Origin: Acholeplasma sp.
Lineage (GTDB): Bacteria; Bacillota_I; Bacilli_A; Acholeplasmatales; UBA5453
DNA: 64,000 nt
Reading direction: 5' to 3'
Assembly (NCBI GenBank): GCA_036677365.1
Contig: JAVBWN010000003.1
Coordinates: 20,678-84,677, forward strand
Under the pieces are notes generated by a model, which was not told the DNA's origin, searched no databases, and saw nothing but the letters and a program-made list of their open reading frames with translations. Position 1 is the first letter of the stretch, and each line of letters opens with the position of its first letter. A program made the position numbers and the translations under genes. Positions 4,246-21,452 of the stretch are shown here, in pieces.

Positions 4246-5250
4246 ATGGCGAACATTAAAGGTGTCAATTTGGGTGGTTGGTTTGTCTTAGAAATGTGGA
4301 TGAGACCTGCATTATTCGAAGGCTTATCTGGACCAGATGAAACCCACTTTATGCAGCACCACAAAGACCCTCATGGGGCATTAGAAAGACATTACCAAAC
4401 CTTCATTACGGAAGAAGACTTTAAGTATTTAAAAGAACATGACGTCAAACAGGTGAGATTACCTGTACCTTGGTGGTTTTTAGGGACTGAACTCTACCAC
4501 CGTTCAAAAGAACACATCGACCGGGCATTTGAATATGCGAATCGATATGGCATTCAAATTCTTGTAGATTTACACACCGCCCCAGGGTGTCAAAATGGCT
4601 TTGACAATGGTGGTATTACCGGTGTCATCGACTGGCCAAAAGAAAAAAAGAACATCGATCAAACGATTGAAGTCTTAAAGACATTGACACAACTTTATCA
4701 TAAGAATGACGCCTTCTTAGGCATCCAAGTATTGAATGAACCGCACAGTTCAATCGATATCGATATCATTTTGGATTTTTATGAAAGAAGCTATAAAGCC
4801 ATTCGTAAAATCACTCAAAAGCTGATTGTATTCCATGACGCTTTTAGACCAAAACTCGATGTATGGCAAACCTTCTTTAAAAACAAAGTGAATGTGGCTT
4901 TCGATTTACACTTATACCACTGTTTTGACCCTAAAATCTATAATGGCGGTGAACTCAATCATTTGAAGGTCGTCCTTGAAGAACGTCATCAAATGATTCA
5001 AGACATCTCTAAATTCGTCAGAGTCATTGTTGGCGAATGGTCGTTAGGTCTGAAAGAAAATAAAGATGACTATAAAGACGCCTTCTCACACGACATTTTT
5101 GTTAGACTATTGGCCGATGCTCAACTCTATGTATATAATCAAGCATATGGGTTTTATTTCTGGAGTTATCGAATTGACCGCGAATCTCATTTGAACTGGG
5201 ATTTTAGACGTATGATTGAAGCGGAATTGTTACCAAAAAATTATAAATAA
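4246..5250 (+). CDS. GH5 glycoside hydrolase (exo-1,3-beta-glucanase-like)
   Basis: GVNLGGWFVLE, DLHTAPGCQNGFDN, NEP acid/base motif, VGEW nucleophile motif. Confidence 0.9.
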   Translation: MANIKGVNLGGWFVLEMWMRPALFEGLSGPDETHFMQHHKDPHGALERHYQTFITEEDFKYLKEHDVKQVRLPVPWWFLGTELYHRSKEHIDRAFEYANRYGIQILVDLHTAPGCQNGFDNGGITGVIDWPKEKKNIDQTIEVLKTLTQLYHKNDAFLGIQVLNEPHSSIDIDIILDFYERSYKAIRKITQKLIVFHDAFRPKLDVWQTFFKNKVNVAFDLHLYHCFDPKIYNGGELNHLKVVLEERHQMIQDISKFVRVIVGEWSLGLKENKDDYKDAFSHDIFVRLLADAQLYVYNQAYGFYFWSYRIDRESHLNWDFRRMIEAELLPKNYK

Positions 5251-5264
5251 TAAAGGAGAATCCC

Positions 5265-5570
5265 ATGAAAGCACTGTTTCATATCGATGAGAGACATAAA
5301 TGGCCGTTATTATCGATGAATATCAAAAACCTTCTCCAGGTGAGTCCAGTGATCAACATCGCTGTGATCATCAATTCGGAGGCGGTAGAATTATTCATAA
5401 AATCCACCGTGAAGCTTGAACCCAACGTGAAATATTACTTATGTGAGAACTCTTTAAAAACGAGAAATTTAAACCCAAACGATATCTTGCCTGGCACAGA
5501 AATCGTAAAGAGTGGGGTCTATCAAATTGTCTTACTTCAAAACCAAGGCTATGCTTATATTAAACCGTAA
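5265..5570 (+). CDS. DsrE-family protein
   Basis: LCENSL and SGVYQIVLLQNQGYAYIKP C-terminal signature. Confidence 0.8.
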   Translation: MKALFHIDERHKWPLLSMNIKNLLQVSPVINIAVIINSEAVELFIKSTVKLEPNVKYYLCENSLKTRNLNPNDILPGTEIVKSGVYQIVLLQNQGYAYIKP

Positions 5571-5631
5571 AAATCTTACGGTTTTTTTCTTGTTGAAATG
5601 TTATAATTAAATCAATGGTGAGGTTAATCCA

Positions 5632-6039
5632 ATGAAAAAAATATATATAATTATGATCTTATTTCTCATAACACTGTCTGGCTGTCAACAAAGTGATTTG
5701 ATTGTTCGTTACGCTGATAACTTGAATATCAAACAAGATGGGTTGATTTATCTTGTAGATGCATTTTATGAGAATGGGTCAAATTTGACCTTTAGAATCT
5801 CCATAGAAAATACCAACGATGAGTCACAAACAATCAAACTAGAAAACTTTTTTATCACAAGATTGAGTAATGATGTGGGTTACCCTGTCAATTGTCGAAT
5901 ATTTGATAATGAGGTAACAATATCAGCCGAATCAAAACAAAATCTATCGTGTGTGGTTGTTTTACCAACATCGATTGAAGATGAACATTATAAATTAACA
6001 TTCAACAAGTTTGTTTTTAACTTGTTTGAAAAGAAGTAA
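5632..6039 (+). CDS. putative lipoprotein (beta-rich / Ig-like)
   Basis: MKK, a hydrophobic stretch and an LSGC lipobox. Confidence 0.7.
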   Translation: MKKIYIIMILFLITLSGCQQSDLIVRYADNLNIKQDGLIYLVDAFYENGSNLTFRISIENTNDESQTIKLENFFITRLSNDVGYPVNCRIFDNEVTISAESKQNLSCVVVLPTSIEDEHYKLTFNKFVFNLFEKK

Positions 6040-6079
6040 GAAAGAAGTATTTAAATTTTGCAGTGATTAGGGGAAAACA

Positions 6080-7306
6080 ATGAAAAAAAGTAATGATATT
6101 AAAGTGGTTGAGTTATTCGCAGGTGTTGGCGGATTTAGAGTAGGCTTAGAGCAAGCATCGACAAGATTTAAAACAGTATATGCAAATCAATGGGAACCTG
6201 GGAAAAAAAGTGATTATCAATATGCGTATAAGTGTTACACATCTCATTTTGGAATTAGTGATAATTACACAAATATTGATATAGGAATCGTCAAAGACTC
6301 TATCCCCAAACATGATTTATTAGTTGGTGGATTTCCGTGTCAAGATTATAGTGTTGCTCATGGAAACAGTGCAAAAGGTATTGAAGGAAAAAAAGGAGTA
6401 CTTTGGTGGGAAATAAGGGACATAGTATCAAACAAAAAACCTAGTTTCATTTTATTAGAGAATGTAGATAGATTGATTAAATCTCCATCAAAACAAAGAG
6501 GAAGAGATTTCGGTATCATGTTAAGGACTCTACATGATGAAGGATACAATGTTGAATGGAGAATAATAAACGCTGCTGATTATGGTGAGGTTCAACGAAG
6601 AAGACGTGTATTCATTTTTGCTTATAAAACAGATATTTTGGGTTTATTTAATGATTATGACGATTGCAGTTTGTTGCTAAAAAATGGATTCTTTTCGGAT
6701 ATCTTTCCAGTGGATTCTACGTATTCAAAAATCAAAGATGTGAAAATAGGAAATAATGAGTTCAAAGATTTAGTTGAAGTATCAGATAACTTCACGTTCG
6801 AATTCTTAAATTCAGGAATAATGAGAAGCGGAAAAATCGTGACAATTGATACAAAACCGATTAAAACACAGAGTATGACTTTATATGATATTCTTGAAAA
6901 AAATGGTGTAGATGACAAATATTTCATCCTGAAAGATTTAGATAAGTTTCACGAATTAAAGGATACAAAAAGAATCCCAAGATTTACACCGGATTTAGAA
7001 ATCTATTACTATACAGAAGGAAAAATGAAATTACCTGATCCCATGGATAGACCAGCAAGGACGATATTGACTAGTGAAGCAAAAATAGCACGCACAACTC
7101 ATGTTGTTATTGATCCATTAACCAATAGAATGAGATTGTTAACCCCTTTAGAGTGTGAAAGACTAAATGGATTCAAAGACAATTGGACACTAACAGGAAT
7201 GCCTGAAAGTTATAGATATTTTTGCATGGGTAATGCTCTTGTAGTACCTCTTGTTACCAAAATGGGAAAAAAAATTATAGAAATGGTGGATAAAAAAGAT
7301 GAATGA
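6080..7306 (+). CDS. DNA (cytosine-5)-methyltransferase, M.Sau3AI-like
   Basis: Motif I ELFAGVGG, IV GFPCQD, VI ENV, VIII QRRRR, X GNA. Confidence 0.95.
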   Translation: MKKSNDIKVVELFAGVGGFRVGLEQASTRFKTVYANQWEPGKKSDYQYAYKCYTSHFGISDNYTNIDIGIVKDSIPKHDLLVGGFPCQDYSVAHGNSAKGIEGKKGVLWWEIRDIVSNKKPSFILLENVDRLIKSPSKQRGRDFGIMLRTLHDEGYNVEWRIINAADYGEVQRRRRVFIFAYKTDILGLFNDYDDCSLLLKNGFFSDIFPVDSTYSKIKDVKIGNNEFKDLVEVSDNFTFEFLNSGIMRSGKIVTIDTKPIKTQSMTLYDILEKNGVDDKYFILKDLDKFHELKDTKRIPRFTPDLEIYYYTEGKMKLPDPMDRPARTILTSEAKIARTTHVVIDPLTNRMRLLTPLECERLNGFKDNWTLTGMPESYRYFCMGNALVVPLVTKMGKKIIEMVDKKDE

Positions 7307-7973
7307 AGTGATTAGAAATGAAATAAAAGAAAAAATCCAAGAAATATTTCAACCTTATTATGGATTATCAACAGATTGTATAAAACAAAAATTTCAAATT
7401 AAATCTTCAGCAAAGAGCATTAACTCTATAATAATTTCTAAAATTTTCGATTTACCATCTCTAGATTTGGAAGTTGTGAAGTACATGAAGGATTACTTTT
7501 CTTTTAAGACAGTGTGTATTAATGACAAAAATCGTGTTACAGAAAGTATGTCTTTTCCGGCAATAAACTACTACGATATGATAAAAAATGATTGGGAAAA
7601 TTCAATCACATATAAGTATTTTTCAAGTAGATTAATTACTATTTTTACATTTAGGAAAAACGAAGATTCTACAATTTTTGAGAATGTTTGTTTCTTAGAG
7701 CTTAATTCTGAAGAATTGGTTCATATTGGAAATGTATGGAGGAAAGTAAAAGATCTTATAGTTAGTGATTCTTTAGTAATAGGTGGTAAAAACAACACTT
7801 CTGTAGAAAATTTCCCTAAGAAAGATGAAAATCCTATTATTCATGTGAGACCACATGATAACAATACTAGGGAAGGAAAAGTACTTCTTCCCAACGGAAG
7901 TAGGATTATCAATTATTGTTTCTGGTTAAACAACAACTTTATTGAAGAAAAAATCAAGGAGAAACAGTTATGA
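7299..7973 (+). CDS. single-domain MutH/Sau3AI-family protein (resembles the Sau3AI C-terminal domain)
   Basis: KTV...ESMSFP, NFPK..EN...HVRPH, LPNG...CFWLN. Only 224 aa, with no clear PD-(D/E)xK. Confidence 0.75.
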   Translation: MNEVIRNEIKEKIQEIFQPYYGLSTDCIKQKFQIKSSAKSINSIIISKIFDLPSLDLEVVKYMKDYFSFKTVCINDKNRVTESMSFPAINYYDMIKNDWENSITYKYFSSRLITIFTFRKNEDSTIFENVCFLELNSEELVHIGNVWRKVKDLIVSDSLVIGGKNNTSVENFPKKDENPIIHVRPHDNNTREGKVLLPNGSRIINYCFWLNNNFIEEKIKEKQL

Positions 7974-9247
7974 AGCAAAATATTAATGTTTTAGAATATG
8001 CTAATAAAATTGGTAAAGAAGTTCCTGACTGGTCGACAGATGGCATTCTTCTTGATGTGTATTTAGTGCCAATTAACAAGCTATACTACAACGATGAAAA
8101 TGGTAGAATTGCTACTTGGATTAGTGGATATAATGACGACCAAGGGGTAAAACCTTTAGAGGAACTTACTATCAAAGAATATAACGATTTGATTTCTAGC
8201 TATATAAAAAAATCAAATTCTACATCATCATTCAAGAAAACATACGACGATATAAAAACAAAAGGTCAAATTAGACCAGGAGTTGTATTAATCGATGGTA
8301 GGGTAGTTAGTGGTAATAGAAGATTTACAGTATTACGCGATTTGTACGAGGATACATCTGATGACAAATTCAATTACTTTAAATGTTTTATAATTGACAA
8401 GGACTTAAATGTTGATGAAAGTAGAAAGCAAATCAAGACTATTGAAAGGTTAACCCAATTTGGGGTAGATGAGAAGCAAGATTATGATCCAATTGATCGA
8501 CTAGTGGACATTTACAATGACTTAATTGGACCAAATAAAATTTGGACTATTGATGAATACCAAAAAAAGTTAAAATTAACAAAATCTGCTGTTTATCAGA
8601 TGTATTACAAAGCATTAGTAATGGTAGATTATCTTGAATACATAAATAAACCTGGAAAATTTCACATAGCCAGATATAAAAAGCTTGATGGTCCGTTACA
8701 AGAATTAGGCAGGCTTTACAAGGATTTAAATAGAAAAGAATGGAATAAGATTCGTATTTATTTTTATTCACAACTACAAAAAAATGGCGATAGGACTCGA
8801 GATATCCGGGATTCTATTACAACTTACAAAAACAAGACAAACGAATTCTATGATTTATGCAGTCAATTGGAGAAAAGCATTCAAGAAGAAGAAAGAAATC
8901 ACATAATAAATGAAAGTCAATATTCGATTGCAGAAAATGCGGATAGTCAATTATCGTCAGATAGTCAATTATCACCAGATAGTGAAAAACCAATTTTTGA
9001 TTTAGGCACAACAATTATAGACAAAGTGTTGACTCCAGAAACAAATAATCAGTTTTTTGATTTAACATTTCAAGCAATTGCAGAGAAAAAAAGAGCAGAC
9101 AAAATCAAAAAAATTGGTGACTCCCTTGACAGTTTAATACTTAACATTCAAGATGCTGTTAGTATAGCCAAAGAAGATGAAAAACATATGCTGCTCCTAA
9201 AAATAGAAGAATTTATCCGTATAGTAGCAATCTTTTCTGAAAAGTAA
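7970..9247 (+). CDS. ParB/Srx-like N-terminal domain protein
   Basis: NDENGRI...GQIRPGVVLIDGRVVSGNRR (ParB-like GxxR box) followed by a helical C-terminus. Confidence 0.7.
   Translation: MKQNINVLEYANKIGKEVPDWSTDGILLDVYLVPINKLYYNDENGRIATWISGYNDDQGVKPLEELTIKEYNDLISSYIKKSNSTSSFKKTYDDIKTKGQIRPGVVLIDGRVVSGNRRFTVLRDLYEDTSDDKFNYFKCFIIDKDLNVDESRKQIKTIERLTQFGVDEKQDYDPIDRLVDIYNDLIGPNKIWTIDEYQKKLKLTKSAVYQMYYKALVMVDYLEYINKPGKFHIARYKKLDGPLQELGRLYKDLNRKEWNKIRIYFYSQLQKNGDRTRDIRDSITTYKNKTNEFYDLCSQLEKSIQEEERNHIINESQYSIAENADSQLSSDSQLSPDSEKPIFDLGTTIIDKVLTPETNNQFFDLTFQAIAEKKRADKIKKIGDSLDSLILNIQDAVSIAKEDEKHMLLLKIEEFIRIVAIFSEK
8942..8983 (+). repeat. 18-bp tandem repeat (about 2.3 copies) in a linker of the ParB-like protein
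   Basis: GATAGTCAATTATCGTCA GATAGTCAATTATCACCA GATAGT encodes DSQLSS DSQLSP DS. Confidence 0.8.
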
Positions 9248-9252
9248 CGACA

Positions 9253-11829
9253 ATGGAACAATTAAAAATTAAACCTTTCTATAATTCAAAAATAGACAAT
9301 TTAATAGAGGATTTCTACAATCCATTATTATCAAAATGTACTAATTATAAGCGCGTTAGTGCATATTTTGATTCTGCTATAATAGAACATTATTCAAAAG
9401 GAATCGAAAACATAGTTAAAAACCAGGGGAAGATACAATTCATTTTTTCAGCTGATATATCACGGGAAGATTTTGAAATAATAGTTAATGGTTATCAAGA
9501 AAGAGAAAAAATATACGACGATTTAGCTAATGGTTTAAGTTTTGAAAATACTTTTTATGAAATTTCAAATTTGGCGTATTTGATTAAGTATGGTTATGTT
9601 GATATTAAAATTGCGTTCACTAGAAAAAGTGGGGTTTTTCATGATAAATTTGGACTATTTGAATTAGGAGATAAGACTGTATATTTTCGCGGATCAAATA
9701 ATGAAACTGTAGCTGCTATTAAGTCAAATTTTGAATCATTTGAAACCACCGCATCATGGACTGCTGATAACAATGAAATATCAAAACTAATTTTAGCCCA
9801 AAAGACATTCAATGATTTATGGAATAATGAGTTTGATGATAGTATTTATGTTGTTGATGTTCCAAAGGCTATAAAATTAAAAATCATGACATATGATAAA
9901 AACAAACTAATCATTGATTGGCCACTCGATTCCAATTGTTTGATAGTTAGTTACGAAAATGATAAATTAATTTTTACAAATAATCTCGAAAACAAAAATT
10001 TTCTGTCCAGAGAGTTGACCTTTTACAAAAAAGTATTATCGAATTACTTGGAGAAAACCGAGAATAACCAATTCTATTTTGATAAGGAATTAACATATGC
10101 AGATATTAAATACATTGTCAGTGAAACTCTTTTGTATGGACAAAATATGGGTTTTATTGTAACATTAATGCCTAACTTAAAAAAATTTCTTCTTGATTAC
10201 AATATTGTAATAGAAAAGAGACGTACATTAGGGTTAACAATTAAGTCGAAACATGAAATCCTTCAAAAGGATTTTAATGAGTTTTCTAGAATTGTTAACA
10301 AAGAAATGAAACGTGAACTTCGCTTACCGCAGCTTTGGGATGCTTATCATATGGCAAATATGATGAGAAGTGCTAATTTTTCAGTGCCAGGTTCAGGTAA
10401 AACATCTATTGTTTATGGGGCATATGCCTATTTGTCATCTTCAGAGAAAGCTTTAGTCAACAAAATTGTTGTGATTGGACCCTTGAATGCTTTTTCGTCA
10501 TGGAAAGATGAATTTGACAATTGTTTTGGTGACAAGAGAAGGTTAAATGTTCTTGATTATCAAAAAATTAAATCACTACCAAAAGCCAATAAATACGACT
10601 ATGTCGTTTATGAAAGTCAAGATTATAACGTGATGCTCTTCAATTATGAAGCAATAAATTCTAACTTAGATATATTAAGAAGGATAATTGACGATAAGAC
10701 AATTTTGGTTTTTGATGAAGTGCACCGTATAAAATCAATTGAAGGTATAAGAGCAAAGGCTGCATTAAGTATCATTGACAAGGCTAAGTACAGAATTGTA
10801 TTAACGGGTACACCGATGCCAAATGGGTTTCCTGATTTACACAACATGTTAAAAATATTATTTTCGGAAGATTATGACAATTATTTTGGATATAGCAGAA
10901 GAGCTTTAGAAATTGCTAATCATGATAAAAATCAACAAATAGAAATCAAAGAAAAAATCAACCCATTCTATTGTAGAATAACAAAAGAAGATTTAAGAGT
11001 ACCACCAGCAGAAAAAGATGACATTCAAAGTGGTTATATAATCGCAAATAATGATGAAATCAAAATTTTCGAATTGCTATACCGGCATTTTCATAAGAAC
11101 TTTTTGACATTATACATTAGATTAATCCAAGCATCGTCAAATCCTGCATTACTGCTAAAAGATATTAACTTGAATGAGCTAGTAATCGATTACCATGAAG
11201 ATTTTTATAATATAGAATTAGGTTCAGTTATAACTCGACCTAGTTTAAGCGCAACTGATATAGAATTAATTCAAAAGGTAAAGTATAGTTCTAAATTTCT
11301 TAAAGGTATTGAACTAATTGAATCGTTAACATCAAAAGGCTCTGTTATAGTGTGGGGTATCTTTATTGACACGATTCATTCCATTAGTGACTTTCTTAAT
11401 AATCGAAAGATTTCAACAAAGGTCATAACAGGGAATACTAGTTTAATCGAGAGAGAACGAATATTGTCCGAGTTTAAAAAGGGAGAATTCAATGTTCTAG
11501 TCACGAACCCACATACACTTGGCGAATCAATTTCGTTACACAAGGTATGTCATCAAGCAGTATATTTTGAACTAAGCTACAATCTTGTACACCTATTACA
11601 ATCGCGAGATAGAATTCATAGATTAGGATTAGAAAATAATGAAAAAACCTATTACTATTTTATGTTATTAGATTCTCCGTTTGCCTTATATCCACCGATT
11701 GATGTTAGAATCTATAGTAGATTAAAAGAAAAAGAAAGGCTTCAAAACATGCTTCTACAAAAAGATGAAATATCATTTATTGAGGATGACATCATGCAAG
11801 ATATCAAAGCTATCATAGGGGACTTGTAA
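9253..11829 (+). CDS. PLD-like nuclease domain fused to a SNF2/SF2 helicase
   Basis: N-terminal HDKFGLFE...GSNN (HKD-like). Helicase motifs PGSGKT, DEVH, LTGTP, GESISL, QSRDRIHRLG. Confidence 0.85.
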   Translation: MEQLKIKPFYNSKIDNLIEDFYNPLLSKCTNYKRVSAYFDSAIIEHYSKGIENIVKNQGKIQFIFSADISREDFEIIVNGYQEREKIYDDLANGLSFENTFYEISNLAYLIKYGYVDIKIAFTRKSGVFHDKFGLFELGDKTVYFRGSNNETVAAIKSNFESFETTASWTADNNEISKLILAQKTFNDLWNNEFDDSIYVVDVPKAIKLKIMTYDKNKLIIDWPLDSNCLIVSYENDKLIFTNNLENKNFLSRELTFYKKVLSNYLEKTENNQFYFDKELTYADIKYIVSETLLYGQNMGFIVTLMPNLKKFLLDYNIVIEKRRTLGLTIKSKHEILQKDFNEFSRIVNKEMKRELRLPQLWDAYHMANMMRSANFSVPGSGKTSIVYGAYAYLSSSEKALVNKIVVIGPLNAFSSWKDEFDNCFGDKRRLNVLDYQKIKSLPKANKYDYVVYESQDYNVMLFNYEAINSNLDILRRIIDDKTILVFDEVHRIKSIEGIRAKAALSIIDKAKYRIVLTGTPMPNGFPDLHNMLKILFSEDYDNYFGYSRRALEIANHDKNQQIEIKEKINPFYCRITKEDLRVPPAEKDDIQSGYIIANNDEIKIFELLYRHFHKNFLTLYIRLIQASSNPALLLKDINLNELVIDYHEDFYNIELGSVITRPSLSATDIELIQKVKYSSKFLKGIELIESLTSKGSVIVWGIFIDTIHSISDFLNNRKISTKVITGNTSLIERERILSEFKKGEFNVLVTNPHTLGESISLHKVCHQAVYFELSYNLVHLLQSRDRIHRLGLENNEKTYYYFMLLDSPFALYPPIDVRIYSRLKEKERLQNMLLQKDEISFIEDDIMQDIKAIIGDL

Positions 11830-12599
11830 TGAGATCATTCAGGGTTACATTTTCAGAAGATGAAGAAGAAATTCTAAAGAAAAACTCTATTAGGTTCAAT
11901 AAAAATGAACGTAACTATCTTTACTATGGGAGTAAAAGAAAAATAATTAAAGATTTTGGTGTTCCTATGGAACTTGATTCTGAGGATTTTAAATGGTTTG
12001 GTTCTTCATGGAAAAAACTATTCGAAGATTTTTGTAATCATTTCATAACAATAATACCTGATTTCAAGGTATTGCTTACGATGAACCCAGATTTTTCAAA
12101 CAAAAAAATATTTTTAAGAGAAAAAATTACAAATTCAATTGGTCCTTTATCAAATGGTTTATTCATCGATGGTAATAGAAGCCCAACTCACATTTGGTGG
12201 TCTATAATCTACTTATCAGAATTAATAAATAGTGATTATGCTAACAGTTTAATACTATACGTACATTATCCCTCAGCAATTGAACCAAAAGAAATTATTG
12301 ATATAATTTGGAAAAAAGAAATAATAACTCTTCATAATTATCTCAATGCTTACGGTTACAATAGGGAAAAAATTGATTCTGTTATAAATTCGGTACGTAA
12401 TCTGAATAAAATATATAGAGAAAAAACAAAGAATTATGTATTTTATTTAATTGATAGAAAACAAGATCTTAGCAATGCCATAAGTTATATCAAGAAAACT
12501 AATCTGTATCAACAAAATGCAAGGGATTTTGATATCTACTTTGAACACATTACTACAATTAAAAGTGAATTATTGTATCCTGATTTTACCTATAGATAA
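11829..12599 (+). CDS. hypothetical protein, last gene of the island
   Basis: 256-aa ORF coupled to the helicase gene (TAATG overlap). No recognisable motif. Confidence 0.7.
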   Translation: MRSFRVTFSEDEEEILKKNSIRFNKNERNYLYYGSKRKIIKDFGVPMELDSEDFKWFGSSWKKLFEDFCNHFITIIPDFKVLLTMNPDFSNKKIFLREKITNSIGPLSNGLFIDGNRSPTHIWWSIIYLSELINSDYANSLILYVHYPSAIEPKEIIDIIWKKEIITLHNYLNAYGYNREKIDSVINSVRNLNKIYREKTKNYVFYLIDRKQDLSNAISYIKKTNLYQQNARDFDIYFEHITTIKSELLYPDFTYR

Positions 12600-12623
12600 G
12601 AAGTTCAGGCGAACTTCTTTTTT
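12598..12623 (+). terminator. intrinsic terminator of the island operon
   Basis: AAGAAGTTC-aggc-GAACTTCTT followed by a T-run. Confidence 0.8.
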
Positions 12624-12728
12624 GCTAAATATAAAAAGTTTCACTTGATTAGATAGTGGTTATAAAAACCATATAACTATGTTATAATACCAATGTAAAC
12701 GCTTTTATTTCGAAGGGAGAAATTTAAC

Positions 12729-13811
12729 ATGAATGAATTTAAAGTATTTGAGTACATGGAAAAACACAAGTACGAACAAGTAGTCTATTTCTATGATAGA
12801 ACTACAGGCTTGAAAGGTATTACGGTGATTCATAATACCACATTGGGGCCAGCCCTTGGTGGCACTAGAATCTGGAATTATGAATCAGAAGACGCAGCAG
12901 TTATGGACTGCTTAAGACTCGCTAGAGGGATGACCTATAAAGCTGCAGCTGCAGGTTTAAACCTCGGTGGTGGTAAAACCGTATTGATTGGTGATGCTAC
13001 TAAAGTAAAGAGCGAAGCGTATTTCAGAGCATTGGGTAGATATGTACAATCCTTAAATGGTCGTTATATCACCGCTGAAGACGTTAATACCAGCACCAAA
13101 GACATGAGTTATGTCCATATGGAAACAGACTTCGTTGTCGGATTAGAAGGTAAATCAGGGAACCCATCCCCAGTCACTGCTTTAGGTGCCTTATATGGTA
13201 TCAAAGCATCTTTAAAGTATCGTTTTGGTAATGAAGACATTTCTAAATACACATTCGCAGTTCAAGGCGCAGGTCAAACGGGTTATTACCTCATCAACCA
13301 CCTCGTTGAATTAGGTGCGAAAAAGGTATATTTCTCAGAAATTAACCCTAAATACATTGAAAGAATGAAAAACGAACATCCAGAAGTGGAATTCGTGAAC
13401 CCAGATCAAATCTATGGCTTGGATGTCGATGTATTCGCACCATGCGCATTAGGTGGCGTACTCAACAATCAAACAATCCCACAAATCAAAGCGAAAATCA
13501 TTGCAGGTACTGCCAATAACGTCTTACTAGATGAAGATATCCACGGTCCTATGATCAAAGAACGTGGCATTTTATATGCCCCAGACTTTGTCATCAACGC
13601 TGGTGGTTTAATCAACGTTTATGTTGAACTCATGAATTGGCCTCAAGAAAAAGCACTCGCAGACGTTAAATTGATTTATGATCGTCTATTGGAAATCTTT
13701 GAAATTTCTAAAGCACAAGACATCCATACTCAACAAGCAGCCAAAGTGTTTGCGAAAAACAGAATCGAAACCATTAAAAACTTACACGATAACTATATAC
13801 CCAAAAGATAA
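12729..13811 (+). CDS. leucine dehydrogenase (Glu/Leu/Phe/Val dehydrogenase family)
   Basis: LGPALGGTR, LARGMTYKAA, GGGK, TAEDV, PCALGG, NAGG. Confidence 0.92.
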   Translation: MNEFKVFEYMEKHKYEQVVYFYDRTTGLKGITVIHNTTLGPALGGTRIWNYESEDAAVMDCLRLARGMTYKAAAAGLNLGGGKTVLIGDATKVKSEAYFRALGRYVQSLNGRYITAEDVNTSTKDMSYVHMETDFVVGLEGKSGNPSPVTALGALYGIKASLKYRFGNEDISKYTFAVQGAGQTGYYLINHLVELGAKKVYFSEINPKYIERMKNEHPEVEFVNPDQIYGLDVDVFAPCALGGVLNNQTIPQIKAKIIAGTANNVLLDEDIHGPMIKERGILYAPDFVINAGGLINVYVELMNWPQEKALADVKLIYDRLLEIFEISKAQDIHTQQAAKVFAKNRIETIKNLHDNYIPKR

Positions 13812-20048: not shown

Positions 20049-21452
20049 ATGACATTTAGAGATTTAAACATTATTGACCCCATTTTAAAATCGATCGCAA
20101 TCGCAGGGTATAAGGAACCTACACCCATACAAACAGACGCGATTCCTGTGCTTTTAAGCAAAAAAGACATTTTAGGTAGTGCGCAAACAGGCACCGGTAA
20201 AACCGCTGCGTTCGCGATACCCATCCTACAAAACCTATATATCGAAAAACCCGATTCGAACCACAAACACATCCGTGCGTTGATTTTGACACCAACCCGA
20301 GAACTCGCAAGTCAAATCTATGAGAATTTCACTTTATACGCGAAATTTGTCAATCAAAGAAGCGCTGTGATTTATGGTGGGGTTTCTCAAAAGAAACAAG
20401 AAGAAGCGTTAGCCAAGGGTGTCGATGTTTTGATCGCAACCCCAGGAAGATTGCTGGATTTGATGTATCAAGGGTTCATATCCTTACAACACGTTTCTTA
20501 CTTGGTACTCGATGAAGCCGACCGTATGCTCGATATGGGATTCATTAAAGACGTCAACAAAATCATCGAATTCGTGCCTAAAGCACGTCAAACGATGTTG
20601 TTTTCAGCAACGATGCCAAAAGAAATTGAAACCTTATCCAAAACCATCTTAAATGACCCTGTGCGTGTATCGATTGTCCCAGTCAATCAAACGATTGACG
20701 TCATTGAACAATCGATTTATCATGTCAATAAAGGCAATAAAACCAAACTATTGGTAGATTTAATCACCTCGTATCAAATGAAATCGGTCTTGGTTTTCAT
20801 GAGAACCAAACACACGGCCAATAAGCTCGTGACAGAACTCTTAAAAGCCAATGTGTCGGCTGAACCGATCCATGGTAACAAGTCTCAAAGTGCCCGTGAA
20901 CGTGCACTACTCAACTTTAAAAAAGGCAAAACCCAAGTTTTGGTCGCAACCGACATCGCTGCTAGAGGGATTGACATCGAAGCGCTCAGTTTCGTGGTCA
21001 ATTATGATTTGCCTGAAACCCCTGAAACCTACATCCACCGCATTGGTCGTACCGGACGTGCTGGGTTAGATGGTAAAGCCATTTCTTTATGTGATCCTAA
21101 AGAACTCAGCCTCTTAAAAGACATTGAGAAACACATCAAGATGACGATTCCAGAAATCGCGCATGGCTACCCTGTGACTAAAGAGTCTACCAATAAGCCA
21201 GCTCAACCAAAAACCAGTAGTCAACCGAAAACAAAAGCATTCAACCCACTCAAACCAAATTACGATACCAAACCAAAAACGAAGACAAAAAAAGAACAAC
21301 CTGAACAAAAACCGGAGAAGAAGGATATGAACGGATTAAAAAACTTAGCCCCTAAAAGCAAGTTTGGACCGACCAAGCCAGTGAATAACTACTTAAAAGT
21401 CCAACAACCTAAACGCAATCAAAACAACAAAAACAGAAGAGCAGTTAAATAA
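20049..21452 (+). CDS. DEAD-box RNA helicase (RhlE-like)
   Basis: GTGKT, PTRELA, DEAD, SAT, HRIGRTGR and a basic C-terminal tail. Confidence 0.95.
   Translation: MTFRDLNIIDPILKSIAIAGYKEPTPIQTDAIPVLLSKKDILGSAQTGTGKTAAFAIPILQNLYIEKPDSNHKHIRALILTPTRELASQIYENFTLYAKFVNQRSAVIYGGVSQKKQEEALAKGVDVLIATPGRLLDLMYQGFISLQHVSYLVLDEADRMLDMGFIKDVNKIIEFVPKARQTMLFSATMPKEIETLSKTILNDPVRVSIVPVNQTIDVIEQSIYHVNKGNKTKLLVDLITSYQMKSVLVFMRTKHTANKLVTELLKANVSAEPIHGNKSQSARERALLNFKKGKTQVLVATDIAARGIDIEALSFVVNYDLPETPETYIHRIGRTGRAGLDGKAISLCDPKELSLLKDIEKHIKMTIPEIAHGYPVTKESTNKPAQPKTSSQPKTKAFNPLKPNYDTKPKTKTKKEQPEQKPEKKDMNGLKNLAPKSKFGPTKPVNNYLKVQQPKRNQNNKNRRAVK

Follow-up and report, generated by a model that had tools for sequence, protein, structure and literature searches.

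A five-gene cassette of Acholeplasma sp. as a probable GATC-linked variant of the AbiR phage-resistance system with a stand-alone Sau3AI effector domain

By examining a 64,000-nucleotide stretch of an Acholeplasma sp. genome (assembly GCA_036677365.1, contig JAVBWN010000003.1, forward-strand positions 20,678 to 84,677; hereafter the window), we found a tight operon of five genes that is very probably a defence system. It is best described as a new architectural variant of AbiR, a system of Lactococcus lactis whose mechanism is still open, and not as something categorically new. More specifically, the cassette is probably a horizontally acquired, AbiR-family, ATP-dependent system resembling restriction-modification (R-M) and keyed to C5 methylation of GATC. 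The defence reading is supported by the recurrent linkage and fusion of its relatives with Sau3AI modules, the depletion of GATC in the host, the absence of the ParB-like gene from all 40 related genomes searched, a foreign codon usage and the location at a hotspot site.

According to the account given in a 2026 review (PMC13064643), AbiR, known since 2000, is a phage-resistance system encoded on pKR223 of L. lactis by three genes at two loci, with the LlaKR2I R-M genes between them; it disturbs the replication of phage DNA, depends on the LlaKR2I methylase and becomes toxic when that enzyme is missing. In the structural reading of the same source, AbiRa is sigma70-like (~820 amino acids, aa), AbiRb is ParB-like (PDB 5K5D) and AbiRc consists of an N-terminal ATP-dependent endonuclease domain (7CLG) and a Snf2 ATPase, the working of these components still being judged unclear. 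The third gene of the cassette is 39% identical (E 9e-55) to AAF75618.1, a protein of 398 aa from L. lactis subsp. lactis bv. diacetylactis, labelled 'unknown' and found among the homologs of a Lactobacillus plantarum protein, which is probably AbiRb. A preliminary description of this DNA had presented the operon as an undescribed system and stated that no known system brings together a Sau3AI-type module, a ParB-like protein and a PLD-SNF2 fusion. The latter statement has to be withdrawn, as AbiR flanks the LlaKR2I R-M genes and has both AbiRb and AbiRc (PMC13064643, as far as its account goes). The former survives in part: the ParB-like and endonuclease-Snf2 core fits AbiR, but the architecture looks new, i.e. 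AbiRa is missing, a Sau3AI C-domain stands alone, the methylase belongs to the operon and a fifth gene is added. No named system of ParB, PLD-SNF2 and Sau3AI components came up in literature searches.

Gene 1 is a full-length C5 methyltransferase (Pfam PF00145, 3.9e-63; TIGR00675, 1.2e-71; PADLOC MTase_II PDLC03329, 1.4e-152 over the full length) with the motifs FxGxG13, PC86, ENV127 and QRRR172. By sequence it is an M.Sau3AI-like methylase, residues 7-406 being 52% identical to the methylase that adjoins a true Sau3AI ortholog in Staphylococcus (locus L008). LlaKR2I is an isoschizomer of Sau3AI, and its methylase makes GAT5mC; gene 1 is predicted to be a self-marking subunit of the M.Sau3AI/M.LlaKR2I type that converts GATC to GAT5mC. 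Gene 2 matches the NCBIfam model NF040973 (restrict_Sau3AI) at 3.1e-38 over profile positions 238-475 of 475 only, and the crystallized C-terminal domain of Sau3AI (PDB 2reu and 7xm0) at 1e-12. The catalytic N-terminal MutH-like domain of the family, with its D-x6-E-x-K signature, is absent from gene 2, nor does Pfam MutH match it. When nine stand-alone proteins were aligned with the two halves of each of eight full-length Sau3AI-like proteins, D-x6-E-x-K was present in the N-terminal halves, whereas all nine stand-alone proteins lacked the D and the E and kept only the K. What the stand-alone proteins do have in common with the Sau3AI C-domain are invariant KT, ESMSF, W, HVRPH and FW.N blocks. 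Their length is constant at 224-238 aa, with 19 invariant residues at 24-49% identity (8 sequences from Bacillota, Mycoplasmatota and Bacteroidota). As described in a preprint (10.64898/2026.04.21.719898), the C-domain of Sau3AI is an effector without catalytic activity; it binds a first GATC site and relieves auto-inhibition of the N-terminal MutH-like nuclease. Judged by its residues, gene 2 is thus a Sau3AI C-terminal effector domain without the catalytic D and E, and is predicted to be a non-catalytic reader of unmethylated GATC.

Gene 3 matches no family of Pfam or PADLOC, and its assignment comes from an AlphaFold2 (AF2) model with a predicted local distance difference test score (pLDDT) of 89.4. 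In Foldseek this model matched Myxococcus xanthus ParB (7bnk), pNOB8 ParB (5k5d), Noc (7nfu) and KorB (8qa9) with E values from 6e-4 to 3e-2 and probability 1.00, and the best PDB matches include CTP-binding ParB proteins. The predicted layout is a ParB N-domain, a middle domain of helices and, at the C-terminus, a long helical hairpin. By this model gene 3 has a ParB fold, with a GNRR box (G115-N-R-R118) that is invariant in 72 aligned family sequences. The canonical box of CTPase ParB proteins is GERR, and a possible replacement at residue 116 of the acidic residue tied to CTP hydrolysis hints that gene 3 may bind nucleotide without turning it over fast. In gene 4, residues 2-216 match the PADLOC model of PbeA (PDLC02707) at 4.2e-62 and are followed by SNF2-rel_dom (2.8e-19) and Helicase_C (9.7e-11) domains in Pfam. 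The motifs comprise H130-D-K132 with GSNN147, and GSGKT380, DEVH488 and TGTP518, i.e. SNF2 motifs I, II and III are intact; from its sequence, the protein combines one conserved HKD nuclease motif with an intact SNF2 ATPase. Among the homologs, 32 clustered helicase open reading frames (ORFs) were at least 800 aa long, one of them (L018) being a mis-called fusion; the 31 true long forms have the PLD domain and all keep H-x-K...GSxN. A further 39 of 73 helicase homologs are short (560-700 aa) and lack PLD. PLD nucleases of the Nuc/BfiI type with a single HKD motif need two molecules together to cut.

The five genes, listed together with the terminator-like hairpin in the table, constitute one operon. 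Gene 1 overlaps gene 2 by 8 nucleotides (nt), gene 2 overlaps gene 3 by 4 nt (ATGA), genes 3 and 4 are separated by 5 nt, and gene 4 overlaps gene 5 by 1 nt (TAATG). A second terminator-like hairpin lies upstream of the operon, at 5562-5584.

Table. Features of the cassette (window numbering as in the source stretch)
Feature	Position	Strand	Basis
Gene 1, C5 DNA methyltransferase	6080..7306	+	Pfam, TIGRFAM and PADLOC matches
Gene 2, stand-alone Sau3AI C-terminal effector-domain homolog, 224 aa	7299..7973	+	NF040973 and PDB matches
Gene 3, ParB-fold protein, AbiRb-like, 425 aa	7970..9247	+	AF2 model and Foldseek
Gene 4, PLD(HKD) nuclease-SNF2 ATPase fusion, AbiRc-like, 858 aa	9253..11829	+	PADLOC and Pfam
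Gene 5, lineage-specific protein, 256 aa	11829..12599	+	5 homologs; fold prediction
Terminator-like hairpin ending the operon	12598..12619	+	9-pair stem, 4-nt loop, then T run

The G+C content is 0.26-0.32 in each 500-nt window from 6001 to 12500, compared to a genome mean of 0.383. It is 0.37-0.45 in the left flank, except for 0.31 at 5501-6000, and 0.35-0.45 in the right flank. The exceptional 500 nt cover an AT-rich lipoprotein gene (135 aa, 5632-6039), which is part of the flank, not of the island, since it is kept at the same place in a congener. ATA is enriched about tenfold in the five genes (34.9 vs 3.4 per 1000 codons; ATA/Ile 0.34 vs 0.04), and AGA only slightly (AGA/Arg 0.57 vs 0.51). 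The preliminary description had read the same five ORFs, overlaps, 5-nt gap, terminator and low G+C from the letters, and all of these are found where it placed them. So are the motifs it had singled out (PC in the methylase, GNRR in the ParB-like protein, HDK and GSGKT in the helicase), and its four domain calls, namely C5 methylase, half-Sau3AI, ParB-like protein and PLD(HKD)-SNF2 fusion, are borne out by Pfam, NCBIfam, PADLOC, PDB and AF2/Foldseek. Of the ATA/AGA-rich codon usage that it had reported, ATA stands and AGA is marginal.

Relatives of gene 3 numbered 1028 proteins at E <= 0.001. A scan of one genome per species yielded 326 confirmed ParB-like relatives, of which the best 80 loci (numbered with the prefix L) were fetched; together with the window they make 81 gene sets, whose neighboring genes were clustered. 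The ParB-like and nuclease-SNF2 relatives span Bacillota, Actinomycetota, Bacteroidota, Spirochaetota, Melainabacteria and one archaeon. In 77 of the 80 loci a gene 4 homolog directly follows the ParB-like gene; of the remaining three, L010 and L063 run into contig ends and L035 gave no match. Directly upstream of the ParB-like gene, a third partner of ~900 aa occurs in 60 of the 81 gene sets. It consists of two to three RNA polymerase alpha-CTD repeats, a sigma70 region-4 helix-turn-helix and a C-terminal part of ~440 aa without any domain match. Together, the ParB-like and SNF2 proteins form the constant core of a widely distributed cassette, and the third partner that usually joins them fits AbiRa. 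Neighbors of the cassette in other genomes include GmrSD as well as type IIG/III-like and AspBHI/Mrr-like restriction genes.

An M.Sau3AI-like methylase and a Sau3AI-like protein were found together in 21 of the 80 loci, in three different arrangements. Eight (L001, L002, L011, L022-L025 and L079) have the layout of the window, i.e. methylase, half-Sau3AI, ParB and PLD-SNF2 without a sigma-like partner, so that the sub-type amounts to nine loci, window included. In eleven, a full-length Sau3AI-like enzyme lies next to the trio, the one in L008 being the true Sau3AI ortholog mentioned above (4pxg match, 2.6e-250). In the remaining two (L013 and L039) the Sau3AI-like part is fused to the AbiRa-like protein, and a third such fusion occurs in L010, on a contig of 2.9 kb. 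These fusions are located at L013:4817-8752 (1311 aa), L039:5200-7914 and L010:103-1707; the L013 fusion has an entire Sau3AI-like enzyme (REase_II 5.9e-103, Pfam MutH 4.3e-31) N-terminal to the AbiRa-like protein. Conservation of the gene order, for which the preliminary description had proposed a check, was found for four genes in 8 of the 80 loci and for all five, gene 5 included, in two (L001 and L002), so the genes do co-occur elsewhere. On a plasmid of L. plantarum the order is instead dcm, ParB, PLD-SNF2 and a Sau3AI-C-like protein of 247 aa (E 4e-15), next to vsr.

A quick maximum likelihood tree of 72 ParB-like proteins, with several long branches and with L002 left out because its ParB gene fell outside the cluster under translation table 11, groups the eight stand-alone-reader loci (window, L001, L011, L022-L025 and L079) with L003 and L006, at a Shimodaira-Hasegawa-like approximate likelihood ratio (SH-aLRT) support of 98. 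The stand-alone-reader label needs two changes on this tree, a value reached by none of 500 shuffles. In both L003 and L006, a Sau3AI-like gene that is full-length and apparently active is followed by a co-directional, shortened partner without the sigma part, and then by ParB and PLD-SNF2; provisionally, their gene content makes them look like intermediates.

Plasmid records with relatives numbered 69, out of which 52 were from Enterococcus, and many of the plasmids are conjugative or mobilizable. The AbiR-like trio, common on the Enterococcus plasmids (L081, NZ_CP098027.1, and 51 others), bears the annotations 'sigma factor-like helix-turn-helix DNA-binding protein', 'hypothetical protein' and 'DEAD/DEAH box helicase' on them, and not that of a defence system. 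On a conjugative plasmid of Lactococcus lactis (L087, NZ_CP087603.1 36069-44083) the ParB-like and helicase pair occurs with genes annotated as type III methyltransferase and type III restriction endonuclease in place of the AbiRa-like gene. This Lactococcus plasmid, found in PLSDB, is not pKR223; its pair is coupled to type III-like Mod/Res genes. Another arrangement, in L046-L080 (Collinsella, Bifidobacterium, Paraeggerthella, Alistipes and Senegalimassilia), consists of a type II methylase, a ResIII/type IIG-like protein of 1127 aa, a protein of 437 aa with only the AbiRa core, ParB, a helicase without PLD, and GmrSD. The ParB-like proteins of these loci are identical or near-identical across Actinomycetota genera and one Bacteroidota genome, and such near-identity in different genera points to a recent horizontal spread of the cassette in gut bacteria.

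The host genome (1.97 Mb, 99.86% complete) contains one copy of each of the five genes, and at this completeness no full-length Sau3AI, MutH-type (Pfam MutH), DpnII-type or Dam-type gene was found in it. Among the 16 four-base palindromes GATC shows the strongest depletion, with 4940 occurrences observed against 10803 expected under a maximal-order Markov model (observed/expected ratio, O/E, 0.46). Other depleted palindromes are GGCC (0.57), GCGC (0.65) and AGCT (0.71), and three further C5-methylase-like stretches occur on host contigs C25 (two) and C14, which together suggests additional R-M systems in this host. The ParB-like gene was found in none of 40 relatives (9 congeners, 12 from elsewhere in the family and 19 from elsewhere in the order), and by its foreign codon usage the cassette is taken to be horizontally acquired. 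No integrase, relaxase or replication gene was found beside it among the window ORFs or in the Pfam scan, and 50,697 phage records gave four weak matches only. The site (window 5250-12729) is bounded by GH5, DsrE-like and lipoprotein genes on one side and a Leu/Phe/Val-dehydrogenase gene on the other. At the same chromosomal site, congener G009 (L085, C2:231400-245000) has two C5 methylases, a Helicase_II/MzaC-like protein of 934 aa and four more genes, and congener G005 (L086, C2:12500-19300) has a SauUSI-like type IV enzyme of 1100 aa (mREase_IV 4.7e-164) together with a protein of 246 aa. Because different defence cargo lies between the same flanking genes in these two congeners, their gene content marks the site as a variable defence hotspot in the genus.

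A mechanism can be proposed from these assignments. The gene 1 methylase would mark and protect host GATC as GAT5mC, and the dead Sau3AI domain of gene 2 would bind unmethylated GATC on incoming DNA, replacing AbiRa as the reader. Gene 3, likely a dimer through its C-terminal helical hairpin, may serve as a clamp or adaptor, gated by nucleotide, through which the motor is licensed. The SNF2 motor of gene 4 would then translocate, and two nuclease-helicase molecules would have to meet for cutting, since there is one HKD motif per chain. The gene 5 protein would modulate the system, perhaps as a reader of hemimethylated GATC. All the evidence gathered fits the picture drawn in the preliminary description, in which a methylation-based self/non-self system has its reader, NTP-binding and motor-nuclease functions split over separate subunits.

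A number of points weigh against the proposal of a GATC-keyed system of the AbiR family. The cassette is known here from its genes alone, and the GATC target of gene 1 is deduced from 52% identity to the neighbor of a Sau3AI ortholog. The depletion of GATC, with O/E measured in the host genome alone, may predate the cassette. The correspondence with AbiR is one with the pKR223 components AbiRa, AbiRb and AbiRc as the review describes them, and equating AAF75618.1 with AbiRb draws on its organism, date-like accession and length. AbiRa, a defining subunit of AbiR, is absent from operon and genome, so that its replacement by another reader has to be presumed. Furthermore, the family effector is not always an HKD nuclease, given the short helicase homologs, and AbiR is described, in the review's account, as reducing phage DNA replication and not as classical restriction. 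Finally, PADLOC-DB v2 models match neither the ParB-like nor the AbiRa-like proteins, and no independent classifier names the cassette.

Three other explanations were considered. One is that two unrelated modules happen to lie side by side, i.e. an orphan methylase with a decayed Sau3AI remnant, and a methylation-independent, AbiR-like ParB-SNF2 abortive-infection pair with an accessory gene. Restriction genes do often decay and leave orphan methylases behind, 56 of the 80 loci show no Sau3AI-type methylase, and in the 11 loci with a complete Sau3AI-type R-M pair that pair is a unit separable from the neighboring trio and at times on the opposite strand. The constant length and the invariant residues of the half protein at such low identity are nevertheless not those of a remnant. 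Its gene is also locked between its neighbors, the start overlapping the methylase stop and the stop overlapping the ParB start; the half protein recurs in another position on the L. plantarum plasmid, and in L013, L039 and L010 the AbiRa-like protein has Sau3AI-like domains fused to it. Together with the reported need of AbiR for a GATC methylase (PMC13064643, within its account), this leaves a chance juxtaposition unlikely. A second possibility, to which we assign a similarly small chance, is that the cassette is mainly a post-segregational-killing or abortive-infection module, with the methylase as antidote and the reader, ParB and nuclease-motor destroying the host chromosome when methylation lapses through cassette loss or phage interference, without any direct cutting of phage DNA. 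The toxicity of AbiR to L. lactis without the LlaKR2I methylase, its classification as abortive infection and its lowering of phage DNA replication, all as summarized in the review (PMC13064643), speak for such a module, as do the many conjugative and mobilizable plasmids (69 records, 52 from Enterococcus) that carry relatives. Toxicity without the methylase is, however, equally expected of any R-M system, the strong avoidance of GATC in the host fits a sequence-directed attack on DNA, and the cassette of the window is chromosomal, at a site that holds ordinary restriction systems in congeners.

A service of the ParB-SNF2 core to a mobile element, be it in establishment, anti-restriction, partition or transcription control, with only an incidental link to the methylase, is the most improbable of the explanations and would surprise us greatly. 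What suggests it is that ParB, SNF2 and methylase domains reportedly co-occur in conjugative-element and phage proteins (PMC5512222), that the AbiRa-like partner has RNA polymerase alpha-CTD and sigma70 region 4 domains, and that there are many plasmid copies. Yet AbiR confers phage resistance experimentally, by the review's account (PMC13064643), the window cassette has no integrase, relaxase or replication gene with it, its neighbors elsewhere are the restriction genes named above, and phage records hold hardly any relatives.

A more far-reaching interpretation of the family, which we consider doubtful, is that AbiR-family cassettes constitute a large unrecognized class of nucleoside triphosphate-dependent R-M systems. 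In these, an invariant ParB-like clamp and SNF2 motor would be combined with swappable reader and effector modules. In the sub-type of the window, the allosteric and catalytically dead Sau3AI C-domain would have been turned into a free-standing sensor of unmethylated GATC, and a SeqA-like reader of hemimethylated GATC would spare freshly replicated host DNA. If true, it would explain a puzzle of 20 years' standing, i.e. why AbiR needs the LlaKR2I methylase. As to the main proposal, the variant described here is a stripped-down form of AbiR, with a GATC-binding effector domain of known specificity from Sau3AI where the sigma70-like subunit normally sits, and it offers a simple model consisting of an unmethylated-GATC reader, a ParB-like nucleotide switch and an HKD-SNF2 motor-nuclease. 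As PADLOC-DB v2 misses the core pair, censuses built on that library probably miss such cassettes.

Gene 5 is rare. Its homologs number five, i.e. three in a collection of 5.8 billion proteins and those of the fetched loci L001 and L002; an alignment of five sequences has 56 invariant columns. The best of five AF2 models, built on only five sequences, had a pLDDT of 82.1, the range being 34.8 to 82.1. With VIA-align, residues 51-144 matched best the C-domains of SeqA from Escherichia coli and Vibrio cholerae, with 3fmt (Z 7.6, root mean square deviation, rmsd, 2.8 Å over 92 residues) and 3sk7 (Z 7.5, rmsd 2.5 Å) at the top, Z values of 7-8 being typical of unrelated best matches; residues 160-250 matched the N-terminal DNA-binding domain of XerD and tyrosine recombinases (Z 6.5). 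SeqA binds hemimethylated GATC. As a lead only, the modelled protein may possibly consist of a SeqA-C-like domain and an integrase-N-like helical DNA-binding domain. A Pfam search at E up to 10 found neither SeqA (PF03925) nor anything else relevant, hhalign against E. coli SeqA gave a probability of 0.7%, Foldseek gave nothing at E <= 0.001 in PDB and at best an uncharacterized giant-virus protein (E 0.09) in BFVD, and the ESM Atlas contained unnamed clusters only. The idea that gene 5 is a split-off piece of AbiRa was rejected as too weak (hhalign against 13 AbiRa-like proteins 5.7%, residues 152-255 against the extreme C-terminus), and the 247-aa protein of L. plantarum was discarded as a gene 5 homolog (E 0.14), being a Sau3AI-C homolog instead. 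The genome of the Spiroplasma sp. of L002 (NZ_JAKNSP010000004.1) carries the whole five-gene cassette, and there gene 5 is interrupted by TGA under table 11 and reads through under table 4. Because gene 5 is intact only under the latter, this cassette is adapted to, or was acquired within, a host in which TGA encodes Trp.

Compared with other known systems, the cassette resembles the type II R-M systems Sau3AI and LlaKR2I in its methylase family and in the homologous C-terminal GATC-binding effector domain, but differs from them in that the window has no catalytic N-terminal MutH-like domain. Another protein would have to do the cutting, probably the HKD-SNF2 fusion, in a reaction expected to require ATP. 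The ATP-dependent type II systems CglI and NgoAVII reportedly consist of a C5 methylase, a PLD nuclease R-protein and an SF2 ATPase N-protein that hydrolyses nucleotide for cleavage. In a comparison by working principle, C5 methylase, PLD-family nuclease and SF2 motor are all shared. Their nuclease is, by contrast, fused to a B3-like DNA-binding domain with the ATPase separate, whereas the cassette has nuclease and ATPase in one protein, a separate reader and, in addition, a ParB-like subunit. In PbeA, of the PbeABCD systems with a CxC ABC ATPase, an HKD endoDNase is fused to an SF2 helicase, sometimes together with cytosine methylases (PMC10853773, in the part describing it). The N-terminal 216 residues of gene 4 match PbeA at 4e-62 and the helicase part weakly, but neither the CxC ABC ATPase (PbeC) nor the DndE-like PbeD or small PbeB occurs among the five genes or their immediate neighbors. 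In DISARM class II, with which the preliminary description had compared the operon, a C5 methylase is likewise found together with an SNF2-type helicase and a PLD nuclease. A PADLOC scan of the five proteins found no DrmA, DrmB (DUF1998) or DrmE and only generic DrmMII matches to the methylase, and the helicase C-domain of gene 4 matched DrmD models at 1e-10 to 4e-9, scoring 40.6 against an NCBIfam cut-off of 610 bits. A BREX-related (BR) system was rejected, as these are, in the description given by PMC12839542, centred on DUF499, which is absent here.

Lastly, AbiR itself is matched by the ParB-like subunit, as 5K5D, the review's best match for AbiRb, ranks second for the gene 3 model. It is further matched, in a comparison by description only, by the N-terminal endonuclease and Snf2 ATPase of gene 4, which correspond to AbiRc, and by the tie to a GATC C5 methylase, M.Sau3AI-like gene 1 in the window and LlaKR2I, where the tie is also functional, in AbiR. 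Unlike in AbiR, the sigma70-like AbiRa is absent from operon and genome (tblastn of three AbiRa-like proteins against the whole host genome hit only an alpha-CTD-like stretch of 47 residues on contig C30, presumably rpoA), and in its place stands a lone Sau3AI C-domain that is catalytically dead. The operon begins with the methylase gene, which here does not form part of a neighboring complete R-M pair, no active Sau3AI-type nuclease is present in the window, and a fifth gene is added. In its working logic the cassette is close to the type I, type III and ISP enzymes and to CglI and NgoAVII; by descent it belongs with AbiR.

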